From Thermococcus kodakarensis KOD1 (GTDB taxonomy: Archaea; Methanobacteriota_B; Thermococci; Thermococcales; Thermococcaceae): a stretch of 32,000 nt of DNA. This document shows, one piece after another, positions 2,652-4,530 of this stretch. Location: NCBI RefSeq assembly GCF_000009965.1, contig NC_006624.1:510001-542000 (forward strand). The letters are read 5' to 3'. Under the pieces are notes generated by a model. The model did no database searches and was not told the origin of the DNA. It was given only the letters and a program-made list of their open reading frames with translations. The position numbers and the translations under genes were made by a program. How positions within the stretch are numbered: the stretch's first letter is position 1; each line of letters opens with the position of its first letter.

Positions 2652-3488
2652 ATGAGCGAGGGTAATATTCCTTCGGTTAGGGATCTTGCTAAGCCAAAGA
2701 GAGTTCCTACGATTTATCCGGAGGGTGTTCGTTTCTCTAAGAAATTGCGATTCTTTAAGACAGCATGGGTGGGTGTTGCCCTTATTATTATAGCGTTCTT
2801 TGTGATGGGGTATGCGGCCGCAATGAGCCCTAAGTATTATTGGGATCCTGTTGACCACTGGTCTAAATCTTGGACAATTGGGCCTGGAGAAGTCTGGCAC
2901 AATAGTTGGACCTTTAAGGAGCCTGCGAAGAATGAGCTCTTTGAAATTAATATTTCAGTAGCTGGAGGTAATAATGACCTCAAGGTTTATGTGGACACTC
3001 CTAAAGGTCGGATAGATTACGGGAAGCTTACTTCCCCGATTCACTTGAAGTTGAATATCACAAAGTATGGCTCTGGAGAGTATGTAGTTTATTATGACAA
3101 TAGTTTTAGTGTGATTACTTCAAAGACAGTCCACGTAGTCCAAACCGCGTATGTCCTCAAGGAGGACACCACCGATAAGGATGGCCTATACTTTTTCGCA
3201 ATCTTCTTTCTCATGATACCAGGACTGATCTTAGTTGGCGCAGGGGTGAGGAAGGTGGCGACTTTGACGGTTGATGATGATGTTATCGAGGCCAAGTTAG
3301 TCATGGGCGGTAAGCTTGAGCTGAAGGTGAACAATTACAAGCTGGACGAGCGCATAGATCATGCAGTTAAGTTCAAGGCAGGAAGGGATGAAAGTAGAAT
3401 AGTGGAAATTAAGCCAATCAGAATTAAGTGGAACGCGCTTGGGTGGGTATTTTATGTGGATGACCAGGAGGTTGGCATGCTGCCGTGA
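2652..3488 (+). CDS. Two-TM membrane protein, 278 aa, with an extracytoplasmic beta-sandwich that carries a p24/GOLD-like sequence pattern
   Basis: GCGGAGGAGGG lies upstream of the ATG. TM1 is WVGVALIIIAFFVMGYAAAM and TM2 is LYFFAIFFLMIPGLILVGAGV. Between them lie FEINISVAGGNNDLKVYVDTPKG ... GEYVVYYDNSFSVITSKTVHV. Confidence 0.75.
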   Translation: MSEGNIPSVRDLAKPKRVPTIYPEGVRFSKKLRFFKTAWVGVALIIIAFFVMGYAAAMSPKYYWDPVDHWSKSWTIGPGEVWHNSWTFKEPAKNELFEINISVAGGNNDLKVYVDTPKGRIDYGKLTSPIHLKLNITKYGSGEYVVYYDNSFSVITSKTVHVVQTAYVLKEDTTDKDGLYFFAIFFLMIPGLILVGAGVRKVATLTVDDDVIEAKLVMGGKLELKVNNYKLDERIDHAVKFKAGRDESRIVEIKPIRIKWNALGWVFYVDDQEVGMLP

Positions 3489-3494
3489 GAAACA

Positions 3495-3502
3495 TTTATA
3501 TA
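3495..3502 (+). promoter_or_regulatory. Archaeal TATA box (TTTATATA) upstream of the GC-rich island
   Basis: Consensus-like TTTATATA in a 17% G+C stretch, about 25 nt before the onset of the GC-rich segment. The surrounding near-palindromic AT sequence could also act on the other strand. Confidence 0.35.
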
Positions 3503-3520
3503 TTACATAATATATAACCC

Positions 3521-3731
3521 ATAATGAGCCCGTGAGAATGATCGGGCGATGAGCCGCACTGGCATGAAGTCCCGTTGGGGACGGAGTTGGCGGGCCCTTT
3601 GAGTGGTGGCCCCGGCAGACGCTCATGAAGCCGGGGATGCACCGTGAGAGGGTTGGCGTCCCGAGAGGGTGCGGGCGATGAGCGACCGTGCCCGATGAAG
3701 ATGAAAAGGGACGCCTTCACGGTCCTTTTCT
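3521..3731 (+). ncRNA. Candidate structured non-coding RNA of unknown family (~200 nt GC island); strand assignment is tentative
   Basis: 118/180 G+C (66%) over 3541-3720 by hand count, against 17% just upstream. There are multiple nested helices, a 12-nt perfect direct repeat, recurrent RTGAG/ATGAAG motifs, a terminal 7-bp stem followed by a T-run, and no ORF with an SD site. Confidence 0.55.
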
Positions 3732-4268
3732 CAAGAGTTCTAAAAACTCAAGGTCATTCTCCAGGTATGCGATTCTTGCAAAGTACGCAATGTTATCCAC
3801 TAAGAGCATTAGGTGTTTGTACTGTTTTGCCGTTGTCTTGCTTTCTTTTTCTTCGATCGTCTTAAGGTCGGGATACTTTCGTTTCAGGATTGAGATAATG
3901 TCCTTATCTCCAAGTATGAATTTGCAGTCGGGATAAAGCTCTTCAAAGTCGTCATAGAAACGCTGTGGAAGATCTCTATCGCGAATTTTGCCAGTGACCG
4001 AGATTCTATAAACCCTTATGAAGTGTAAATGGCTGGTAAGGTTGGTGCGCTCTCCTTTGAGAGCGGCTTTTAGCATGTCCATTTTGGCCTTCTTCGCGCT
4101 TCCATATTTCTTTGCGTGCTTGAGATTGAGTTCTCTGAATATGATCCTTTTGAGATGTCCTACTTCAGAGTCCCAAACTCCGACTAATGCTAAAACAGTA
4201 AACCCTTTTCTAGTCTCATGCTCAGTGCTCCTGTCAATTATCACGATTAAGTTCTTAAAGCGCTTCAT
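3717..4268 (-). CDS. Hypothetical 183-aa protein, weakly DUF3800-like pattern (N-terminal IVIIDRS, C-terminal LLVDNIAYFA)
   Basis: ATGA start/stop overlap with the upstream 70-aa ORF suggests translational coupling. No TM segments. The family assignment is pattern-level only. Confidence 0.7.
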   Translation of the reverse strand: MKRFKNLIVIIDRSTEHETRKGFTVLALVGVWDSEVGHLKRIIFRELNLKHAKKYGSAKKAKMDMLKAALKGERTNLTSHLHFIRVYRISVTGKIRDRDLPQRFYDDFEELYPDCKFILGDKDIISILKRKYPDLKTIEEKESKTTAKQYKHLMLLVDNIAYFARIAYLENDLEFLELLRKGP

Positions 4269-4477
4269 TCAACCACCAGCCAGCGTGGTCTTTTTCCCTC
4301 GGGAATAAGCTTGGCCAGTTCCCTGAGTTCTTCTGGAGTGAGGATGTAAACTTCCTCTGGAAGTTCAGCCTTGGACGGGATGTAGATAAGCCTTTGCTCA
4401 ACGTTATAGACTTTTCCTCTTTTCTTTTGCTTTTTGATCTGCTTTCGAACCTGAACCTTAAGCATTCTCCTCACCAT
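4265..4477 (-). CDS. Small basic protein, 70 aa (lysine/arginine-rich N-terminus), possible nucleic-acid binder
   Basis: The ATG lies about 21 nt downstream of a TATA box (leaderless geometry). N-terminus is MVRRMLKVQVRKQIKKQKKRGK. It overlaps the 183-aa gene by 4 nt. Confidence 0.6.
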   Translation of the reverse strand: MVRRMLKVQVRKQIKKQKKRGKVYNVEQRLIYIPSKAELPEEVYILTPEELRELAKLIPEGKRPRWLVVE

Positions 4478-4479
4478 TA

Positions 4480-4518
4480 TACGGTAGAAGGCTTTGCCTT
4501 ATAAACTTTTCTACCGTA
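4480..4518 (-). promoter_or_regulatory. Promoter enclosed by a perfect 10-bp inverted repeat (operator-like)
   Basis: TACGGTAGAA (4480-4489) and TTCTACCGTA (4509-4518) flank a 19-nt spacer. On the minus strand the spacer reads AAGTTTATAAGG (TATA at 4498-4505). The left arm ends 2 nt before the ATG of the 70-aa gene. Confidence 0.5.
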
Positions 4519-4530
4519 GAAAAGAAAAAG
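4519..4530 (-). terminator. Oligo-T terminator candidate ending the long minus-strand operon
   Basis: The minus strand reads CTTTTTCTTTTC, 13 nt after the TAA of the 101-aa gene and just before the inverted-repeat promoter. Confidence 0.45.

Follow-up and report, generated by a model that had tools for sequence, protein, structure and literature searches.

What is the GC-rich island that lies between two convergent genes of TKV3, a provirus of the pT26-2 plasmid family, in the archaeal hyperthermophile Thermococcus kodakarensis KOD1? The window analysed here is a stretch of 32,000 nucleotides (nt) of the forward strand (NC_006624.1, positions 510,001 to 542,000). A genome coordinate equals the window position plus 510000, as a published table of gene coordinates confirms for TK0596, TK0597 and TK0598. 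The island stands out by composition, with a G+C content of 65.6% (118/180) in 3541–3720 against 16.7% (5/30) in 3491–3520; the window as a whole has 49.8%, and the flanking 200-nt windows approximately 0.35–0.47. It is transcribed on the plus strand, from its own promoter, into an abundant RNA made of exchangeable hairpin modules, and its position is tied to genes of the TK0597 family. We tentatively favour, at a rough probability of 0.45, the reading that the island is an independently transcribed, structured non-coding RNA gene whose product is partnered in trans with the predicted nuclease TK0597 on mobile elements of the pT26-2/TKV3 type.

The 5' end of the transcript is known from published data. 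Differential RNA sequencing (dRNA-seq) of T. kodakarensis located an orphan transcription start site (TSS) at genome position 513526 on the plus strand, which is window position 3526 (Jäger et al., 2014; PMC4247193); the first T of the TATA box stands 31 nt before it. In at least ten homologues a TATA-like box is found 29–32 nt upstream of a conserved UGAG start, and the sequence between the two is unconserved. An earlier note on this DNA, made from the sequence alone, had proposed a structured plus-strand RNA gene with its own TATA box, and both the published start and the TATA-like boxes of the homologues bear this out. The transcript had in fact been recorded: Table S6 of the dRNA-seq study lists it as a candidate small RNA (sRNA) without a name, with a GC of 0.64 and conservation given as 'Thermococcales', and not flagged as known or predicted (PMC4247193). 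It is thus already catalogued but uncharacterised, with no structure or function given in that study.

A second abundant 5' end, at 3657, coincides with the boundary between two of the modules described below, B and C. In circular and chimeric RNA data at least 30 distinct junctions terminate at 513655–513663, and the junction 513538–513711 has a value of 5996 against approximately 100–500 in neighbouring entries, in an unlabelled column that we take as coverage (PMC9014305). These junctions speak for an RNA that is abundant and has a conspicuous end where B meets C, and because a TATA box is absent upstream of 3657, this end is probably a processing site. At the other end of the RNA, the T-run of the 3' tail is predicted from sequence to be the probable site of oligo-T termination, and every homologue has a T-rich tail. 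A 20-nt AT-only palindrome (TATATATTACATAATATATA, 3497–3516) also overlaps the TATA box, in the gap from the TK0596 stop codon to the start of the RNA; it matches the Rfam family nos_TCE at chance level and could be a bidirectional TATA element, or a termination zone for TK0596 and read-through TK0597 transcripts.

One short purine motif recurs throughout the island. Between 3520 and 3720, RTGAR (R, purine) occurs nine times on the plus strand and twice on the minus strand, where mononucleotide shuffles give 0.9 ± 0.9 (0/2000 reach nine), an enrichment of approximately 10-fold; TGA occurs 11 times against 2.6 expected. The recurrence of such a motif had been described in the earlier note, and it holds with a plus-strand bias; the G+C counts, the TATA box TTTATATA at 3495–3502 and the positions of a 12-nt repeat were all exact on recount. 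This repeat, CGGGCGATGAGC, has exactly two copies (3543–3554 and 3672–3683). When viral contigs were scanned with 15- and 16-mers of the repeat region, 72 and 70 loci were returned, none with longer conserved sequence, which is the level of chance. The plus strand folds at −95.9 kcal/mol (z = −3.4 against dinucleotide shuffles, 0/200), and the minus strand has z = −2.1.

The island neither encodes a credible protein nor resembles the known RNAs that were looked for. As the earlier note had said, it holds no credible open reading frame (ORF), because homologues gain and lose whole modules without preserving any reading frame. A cmscan search of Rfam (4227 families) gave no matches at the gathering threshold in the whole window and nothing above noise at a relaxed E ≤ 10 in 3400–3850, and ARAGORN found no tRNA or tmRNA genes. 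The C box (UGAUGA) and the D box (CUGA) are absent throughout 3526–3732, and the best Rfam C/D match, sR-tMet, reaches 15.6 bits where the gathering score is 50; a box C/D sRNA was rejected on these grounds. An H/ACA RNA was likewise rejected, as the trinucleotide ACA is absent from the RNA, no Rfam match rises above noise, and the internal loop of module C, taken as a candidate pocket, has a 5' strand of only 4–5 nt. An attP site or tRNA fragment, a mimic of a clustered regularly interspaced short palindromic repeat (CRISPR) and a hammerhead were dismissed on the ARAGORN and Rfam results and on their missing signature sequences. The searches therefore agree with the earlier note that the RNA is not RNase P, signal recognition particle, tRNA, C/D or H/ACA RNA.

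How the RNA is built becomes visible when its relatives are compared. There are 16 distinct related loci including the window, gathered from TK0597 and TK0598 homologues with contig look-ups, one metagenome pattern scan and a plasmid match; a genome-contig scan with TK0597 peptide patterns was too strict and gave two loci only, both from metagenome-assembled genomes. The cultured sources are pT26-2, T. barophilus, T. nautili, T. zilligii, Pyrococcus sp. NA2 and P. kukulkanii, and the remainder are hydrothermal metagenome contigs. Among these loci, insertions and deletions of whole modules coincide with predicted hairpin boundaries, and three modules, A, B and C, can be told apart in T. kodakarensis (Table 1). 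Module A is carried by T. kodakarensis, pT26-2, T. barophilus (where the helix around A2 is extended to 7 bp), T. nautili, T. zilligii and loci L144, L159, L162 and L163b. Module B is missing as a single clean block in pT26-2 and T. barophilus; it is carried by L144, L145, L159, L162 and T. nautili, with a remnant in L163a. In Pyrococcus sp. NA2 module C stands alone, immediately behind its own TATA box, whereas L152, L153 and L155 have unrelated 5' hairpins followed by C, and L145 a different first hairpin followed by B and C. Module C was considered as a universal core and rejected, as T. nautili has A and B only, and T. zilligii and L163b have A only. Besides the TATA-like box ahead of the UGAG start and the T-rich tail, all loci have in common at least one GC-rich hairpin with RUGAR motifs. 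Such an architecture, with modules swapped in and out, is unusual for a conserved RNA, and it suggests that a partner reads a short structural motif rather than a global fold.

The best evidence that a fold is maintained comes from module C. A covariance model of it (R1) finds a single copy in the window (3652–3722, 96.4 bits, E 3e-24) and again a single copy at every homologous locus, and in an alignment of 14 distinct, related sequences 94% of the cells are paired. Compensatory double changes are seen at three pairs (G-C to A-U in the first outer pair, and G-C to C-G in two inner pairs), a further pair occurs in three types (U·G, C-G and U-A), and one G·U pair is invariant where the opposite strand would have a C·A mismatch. 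In module B, too, a C to U change yields a U·G pair that is valid on the plus strand only. Because there are compensatory changes, and G·U pairs valid on this strand only, the plus-strand RNA fold appears to be under selection. An Rfam search and a covariation check had both been proposed in the earlier note; the first gave no known family, and the second gave module C a covariation score of 0.139 against 0.094 in shuffles (0/500 reach it), which is moderate support for the fold, not proof. A conserved secondary structure with covariation is thus found in an RNA that is convergent with its neighbouring gene and is not a 5' untranslated region (UTR) element.

The fold that emerges differs from the one first proposed. 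All eight pairs of complementary segments listed in the earlier note are perfect on rechecking. Its nested global fold (3541–3547/3690–3696, 3554–3559/3669–3674, 3634–3640/3656–3662 and 3592–3596/3608–3612) is not conserved, because the pairings are impossible in homologues missing a module. Two pairings that it had offered as mutually exclusive alternatives, 3655–3662/3708–3715 and 3528–3532/3543–3547, turn out to be conserved helices and lose the status of mere alternatives, and a conserved inner helix of module C, 3667–3674/3686–3693, was not on its list. The proposed closing stem (3684–3690/3718–3724) is complementary as described, but it competes with the inner helix, and homologues retain it only in part. 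RNAalifold, applied to four sequences with all three modules, recovered hairpins A2, B and C together with a long-range helix between 3544–3553 and the 3' tail, in which variation is limited to G·U to G-C changes. We do not rely on this helix, because it competes with A1 and is impossible in homologues that have no module A. In its first 20 nt (the GAGAAUGAUCGGGCGAUGAG region, 3526–3545) the RNA is similar to the end of the TK0597 coding sequence, read in the sense direction (3716–3732), and its 5' part can therefore pair with its own 3' tail, as in the closing helix of RNAalifold.

Table 1. Features of the island and its neighbouring genes, in window positions.
Feature	Position	Strand	Description
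TK0596	2652–3488	+	278-aa membrane protein upstream of the RNA
Promoter	3493–3502	+	TATA box TTTATATA at 3495–3502; A-rich bases resembling a transcription factor B recognition element (BRE) 5' of the TATA
Transcription start	3526	+	G of conserved UGAG; orphan TSS TTS0513526_+, Table S2 (PMC4247193)
Module A	3526–3592	+	Two hairpins, A1 and A2
Hairpin A1	3528–3532/3543–3547	+	GCCCG/CGGGC, with flanks UGA and GAUGAGC
Hairpin A2	3569–3582	+	GUCCC-GUUG-GGGAC, inside a CCGC/GCGG helix
Module B	3593–3654	+	Long hairpin: helices CCC/GGG, GGUG/CACC and CCCCGGC/GCCGGGG; GA-rich internal loops; AUGAA terminal loop
Module C	3655–3716	+	Outer helix, internal loop (GAGA versus RAUGA-A-NAUGA-NAA), inner helix, then G·A, CG/CG and AUGAG loop
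Module C outer helix	3655–3662/3708–3715	+	GGCGUCCC/GGGACGCC
Second abundant RNA 5' end, B/C boundary	3657	+	TTS0513657_+ in dRNA-seq (PMC4247193)
Module C inner helix	3667–3674/3686–3693	+	GGGUGCGG/CCGUGCCC
3' tail with T-run	3717–3732	+	CCUUUUCUC; T-rich; antisense to the final TK0597 codons, stop included
TK0597 (t26-18 family, 183 aa)	3717–4268	−	Predicted RNase-H-like nuclease, convergent with the RNA; protein 100% identical to TK0597
TK0598 (t26-17 family, 66–70 aa)	4265–4477	−	ORF with very basic N-terminus; 4-nt overlap with the TK0597 start

Sequence comparison between elements indicates that this non-coding sequence is under strong purifying selection. When T. kodakarensis is set against pT26-2, identity is 95.5% in module A and 100% in module C; the TK0597 gene has 82.4%, and only 62.5% at its third codon positions. 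TK0596 and its counterpart t26-19 share 63.7% nucleotide identity, far below that of the RNA.

The RNA also keeps its place beside one gene. In 14 of the 16 loci, across Thermococcus, Pyrococcus and vent metagenomes, it faces a TK0597-family gene or its remnant in convergent orientation and borders the 3' end; of the two remaining loci, L163a has no gene adjacent and the contig of L162 is too short to show a neighbour. The linkage is kept where the TK0597-family protein is only 24–28% identical (the 161-aa type of T. nautili, the P0021 type and the T. zilligii type), and both linkage and RNA persist where TK0596 is absent. RNA and gene moreover decay together: in P. kukulkanii the TK0597-family gene is broken (102 + 65 aa) and module C has an A·C mismatch, and in L163a, with no adjacent gene, both module C helices are badly eroded. 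This co-decay supports a functional coupling of the two.

The protein at the other side of this linkage is a predicted nuclease, judged by its modelled fold. The AlphaFold2 model of TK0597 (predicted local distance difference test score, pLDDT, 86) has as its best match in the PDB the RNase HII of T. kodakarensis itself (2dff; E 1.9e-3, prob 1.0, template modelling score, TM, 0.48); further structural matches are to other RNase H2 proteins, including human 3puf, and a viral library returned RNase-H-superfamily matches only. Ten positions are invariant across the 183-aa type, the 161-aa type of T. nautili and the 160-aa P0021 type (D12, S14, K50, H51, D121, E140, D158, N159, A161 and R165), among which D12, D121, E140 and D158 form, as read from the alignment, the D-D-E-D set typical of RNase-H-like nucleases. 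TK0597 and its T. barophilus homologue are named 'DUF3800 domain-containing protein' in UniRef. DUF3800 proteins have been described as RNase H2-like, with 3pufA and 1EKE as RaptorX templates (PMC7736814), and their AlphaFold models as an RNase H fold with a catalytic rearrangement (PMC10910872). An exhaustive profile search of 1.8 billion representatives found six TK0597 relatives and no bridge to Pfam DUF3800. Fold, invariant residues and name together make TK0597 a probable distant DUF3800-like protein, its membership of the family being unproven.

The earlier note had pointed to the neighbouring cassette of 70- and 183-aa genes, and this was apt. In most of the loci examined, though not in L152, the TK0597-family gene has a t26-17-family gene upstream. 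Relatives of the small protein TK0598 were the more numerous in the search: it gave 39, spread over many genomes of Thermococcus, Pyrococcus and Palaeococcus, whereas the 183-aa TK0597 type had 19. The TK0597-family genes that accompany the small protein in T. nautili and T. zilligii are strongly divergent. The pattern suggests a cassette that is anchored by the conserved small protein and in which nuclease and RNA diversify. The AlphaFold model of TK0598 is poor (pLDDT 57.6) and was set aside. In the dRNA-seq data, a TSS assigned to TK0597 as primary lies within the TK0598 coding sequence (514381, window 4381, minus strand), and a further one lies within TK0597 (514230, window 4230, minus strand) (PMC4247193). 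Because these starts lie inside the two genes, TK0597 and TK0598 may not simply be one operon. Pfam, PADLOC and NCBIfam scans of TK0596, TK0597, TK0598 and their relatives gave as their sole result a weak GOLD/emp24-like match in TK0596 (PF01105, E 0.003, below cut-off).

Some of the loci deserve description in their own right. The L163 metagenome contig has two copies of the RNA family (410–539 and 4459–4523), one an eroded B and C without a TK0597-family gene, the other A only, next to a P0021-like gene remnant. In T. nautili (OX281345.1, L165; 1–2906 versus 3001–3813) a CRISPR array of more than 44 repeats, the last of them degenerate, is followed approximately 95 nt beyond the degenerate repeats by a t26-17-like gene, the 161-aa TK0597-family gene and an RNA with A and B. 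Another T. nautili assembly (L166) has a different upstream flank, and this difference suggests a rearrangement breakpoint beside the cassette. In T. zilligii (L167, 4069–4540), 5S rRNA and two tRNA genes lie approximately 350–800 nt from the A-only RNA copy, which is consistent with a remnant of a tRNA-integrating element of the pT26-2 type. The TK0597-family gene there is apparently truncated or frameshifted (called as 91 aa), with the family-like C-terminal motif ADNLCNYLR still readable.

These observations can be drawn together in a model of what the RNA may do. Transcription starts at G3526, approximately 30 nt after the RNA's own TATA box, passes through the GC-rich hairpin modules A, B and C, and probably ends at the T-run overlapping the stop codon of the convergent TK0597; the precursor appears to be cleaved where B and C meet, near 3657. 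On this model the RNA would act in trans as the dedicated partner of the RNase-H-like TK0597, which would be bound through GA-rich RUGAR hairpins, the short motif common to all modules. It might hold the nuclease inactive, in the manner of an antitoxin or a sensor, or supply its specificity, and together with TK0597 and the small basic TK0598 it could form a maintenance or defence cassette of the element. A bolder version, possible but doubtful, is that the three components are an unrecognised RNA-dependent nuclease system of plasmids and proviruses in archaea, serving addiction, superinfection exclusion or antiviral defence, in which the interchangeable modules with GA motifs would be the units that the nuclease both recognises and processes.

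Several points weigh against a dedicated partnership of the RNA with TK0597. There is no universal RNA module, as the loci have A only, A and B, A and C, A, B and C, C only, or other 5' hairpins followed by C; a model with one binding site therefore needs a shared short motif and not a shared fold. The family is small and closely related, which limits the covariation statistics. The compact T. kodakarensis genome has many sRNAs that converge on a gene and overlap its 3' end (PMC4247193), and the convergent position alone is for this reason weak evidence. On the protein side, the hidden Markov models (HMMs) of Pfam, NCBIfam and PADLOC match nothing in TK0597, with no PF12686 even at E ≤ 10; the family has D-R in place of the N-terminal D-E motif and is without the QxxD motif, and the DUF3800 label comes from the UniRef name and a weak fold similarity (TM 0.48). 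Finally, the binding of the RNA to TK0597, the nuclease activity of TK0597 and any toxin, antitoxin or defence role are what we infer.

Could the RNA instead regulate TK0597 in cis? It might pair with the TK0597 mRNA, in its last codons or in a read-through 3' UTR, and so control stability, translation or transcription termination, with the GC-rich hairpins serving mainly to stabilise the RNA at 85 °C. The 3' tail does overlap the TK0597 stop codon, and an overlap of this kind is found in 14 of the 16 loci; the minus strand of the island has no T-run, so the TK0597 mRNA probably reads through it, and linkage to the 3' end of the gene fits action in cis and in trans equally. We nevertheless consider cis regulation unlikely. 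The unpaired loops (AUGAG, and RAUGA-A-NAUGA) are conserved far more than a stabilising hairpin requires, modules are swapped freely and yet the overlap with the gene is just approximately 15 nt, and the G·U pairs point to selection on the plus-strand fold and not on a duplex. The bacterial RNAs associated with DUF3800 genes, furthermore, occur on either side and strand of the gene (PMC5737381). A different role in trans, independent of TK0597, would be that of a free-standing sRNA that base-pairs with mRNAs of the host or the element. An orphan, abundant transcript with conserved unpaired purine-rich stretches would suit it, but duplex prediction against the 5' regions of TK0596, TK0597 and TK0598, the only targets covered, favoured none (z −0.9 to +0.6), and both the linkage to very divergent TK0597-family proteins and the co-decay of RNA and gene favour coupling. 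There is only a slight chance that this is what the RNA does.

The RUGAR motifs beside the helices raise a further possibility, namely that they form kink-turns or K-loops and that the RNA belongs to a ribonucleoprotein with L7Ae, as a scaffold, an L7Ae decoy or an unusual guide. Three sites in the window have the kink-turn sequence signature, 'helix - 3 nt - GA' opposite 'GA - helix': the base of A1 (UGA-GCCCG...CGGGC-GAU-GA), module B (CCC-UUU-GA...GA-GGG) and the internal loop of module C, where GAGA is opposite CCC-GAU-GA. The first hairpin of L152, in which the helix sequence is unrelated, retains the flanks UUGA...GUU-GA-GC, and the roughly 10-fold enrichment of RUGAR is in keeping with such a role. 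The signature is not in all homologues, however, and the first hairpins of L153 and L155 are without it. With a TSS at G3526, the non-canonical stem of A1 is limited to two G·A pairs, no canonical C (UGAUGA), D (CUGA) or ACA box is present, no Rfam C/D or H/ACA match rises above noise, and the strict linkage to TK0597 would be left unexplained, all of which makes this account improbable. It is more doubtful still that there is no RNA gene at all, and that the island is a DNA-level element (an origin, a partition or a recombination site) or a processed 3' UTR or terminator region shared by the convergent TK0596 and TK0597. Its position between convergent genes would fit, short repeated motifs can look like iterons, and the module boundaries resemble recombination joints. 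Against this very improbable account stand the RNA's own TATA box at the canonical distance, the primary (orphan) TSS in dRNA-seq, the persistence of the RNA without TK0596, and the compensatory changes and plus-strand-only G·U pairs, which indicate selection on an RNA fold. The predicted origin of pT26-2, moreover, lies in an AT-rich region elsewhere (PMC2926602).

A trans-acting RNA gene coupled to TK0597 is thus the reading we carry forward. What is new here is the conserved modular structure, its covariation, the link to an RNase-H-like gene and the connection to a class of DUF3800-associated RNAs. The DUF3800-linked RNAs have stood since 2017 as eleven unrelated folds with presumably one function, and no mechanism is proposed for them in the literature examined; the present locus appears to extend the phenomenon to mobile elements of hyperthermophilic archaea. 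In T. kodakarensis genetics are routine, and the 5' ends and abundance of the RNA are visible in public data. If the three-part system were true, it would be the first member of the 'DUF3800 and non-coding RNA' kind in a tractable, transcriptome-mapped organism, and the function of the class would become directly testable. The transcriptome map of T. kodakarensis has 55 orphan sRNAs without names, and one of them now gains a structure, a gene context and a working hypothesis. The pT26-2 plasmid family gains an annotated, conserved non-coding gene that is undescribed in its plasmid papers, an RNA at this position being absent from both.

In type III toxin–antitoxin systems (ToxIN, CptIN, TenpIN) an RNA antitoxin is bound and processed by a protein toxin. 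The antitoxins are tandem identical repeats of approximately 34–36 nt, located upstream of the toxin on the same strand with a terminator between the two, and the toxins are endoRNases of the ToxN/AbiQ fold, not RNase-H-like. The TKV3 locus resembles these systems as a mobile-element cassette of a nuclease-like protein and an adjacent, abundant, structured RNA of several units, with evidence of processing at a unit boundary (3657) and fast, modular evolution of the RNA. In contrast, the island modules are dissimilar and convergent with the gene, and a third, small protein is present; the only direct repeat in the island is the 12-mer in two copies, and tandem co-oriented repeats were not found there.

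Another comparison is with the type VII retron that has a DUF3800 effector (Mestre et al., 2020; PMC7736814), in which an RNase H2-like protein is likewise tied to a structured non-coding nucleic acid in a cassette of defence type. Unlike in these retrons, no reverse transcriptase is adjacent to the RNA–TK0597 cassette in the loci examined, and no inverted repeats like those of msr/msd were identified. As an RNA, the island shares with HgcC, HgcE, HgcF and HgcG of the Thermococcales, and with archaeal C/D and H/ACA sRNAs, the form of a GC island in an AT-rich context, a BRE/TATA promoter and GA-rich internal loops, and with other T. kodakarensis sRNAs the common convergent overlap with the 3' end of a gene (PMC4247193). 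It differs from the Hgc, C/D and H/ACA RNAs in matching no Rfam family, lacking C, D and ACA boxes, and lying on a mobile element and not in the core chromosome.

The closest comparison is with the RNAs found beside DUF3800 genes. Weinberg et al., 2017 (Nucleic Acids Research 45:10811; PMC5737381) described DUF3800-I and ten further DUF3800 RNA motifs of unrelated structure in bacteria and archaea, defined by their compelling association with genes of DUF3800 proteins. These lie on either side of the gene and in either orientation; a terminator often follows, and they do not belong to 5' UTRs. Their function was left unexplained (PMC5737381). The Rfam models of such motifs (release 15 includes at least DUF3800-I and DUF3800-IX, RF02969 and RF02968) gave no match in the whole window at the gathering threshold, in 3400–3850 at E ≤ 10, or in seven homologous loci at E ≤ 1. 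The island differs from the described motifs in that TK0597 escapes the Pfam DUF3800 HMM and that the setting is a plasmid or provirus of an archaeal hyperthermophile. Its RNA is a mosaic of interchangeable hairpins and not one fixed fold, and RUGAR is prominent in it where the UAA trinucleotide of the bacterial motifs is not. The arrangement is nevertheless the same, a structured non-coding RNA with a terminator-like tail, outside any 5' UTR and next to a putative RNase H2-like gene, and by this analogy the island RNA may well be an archaeal example of the DUF3800-associated RNA class.

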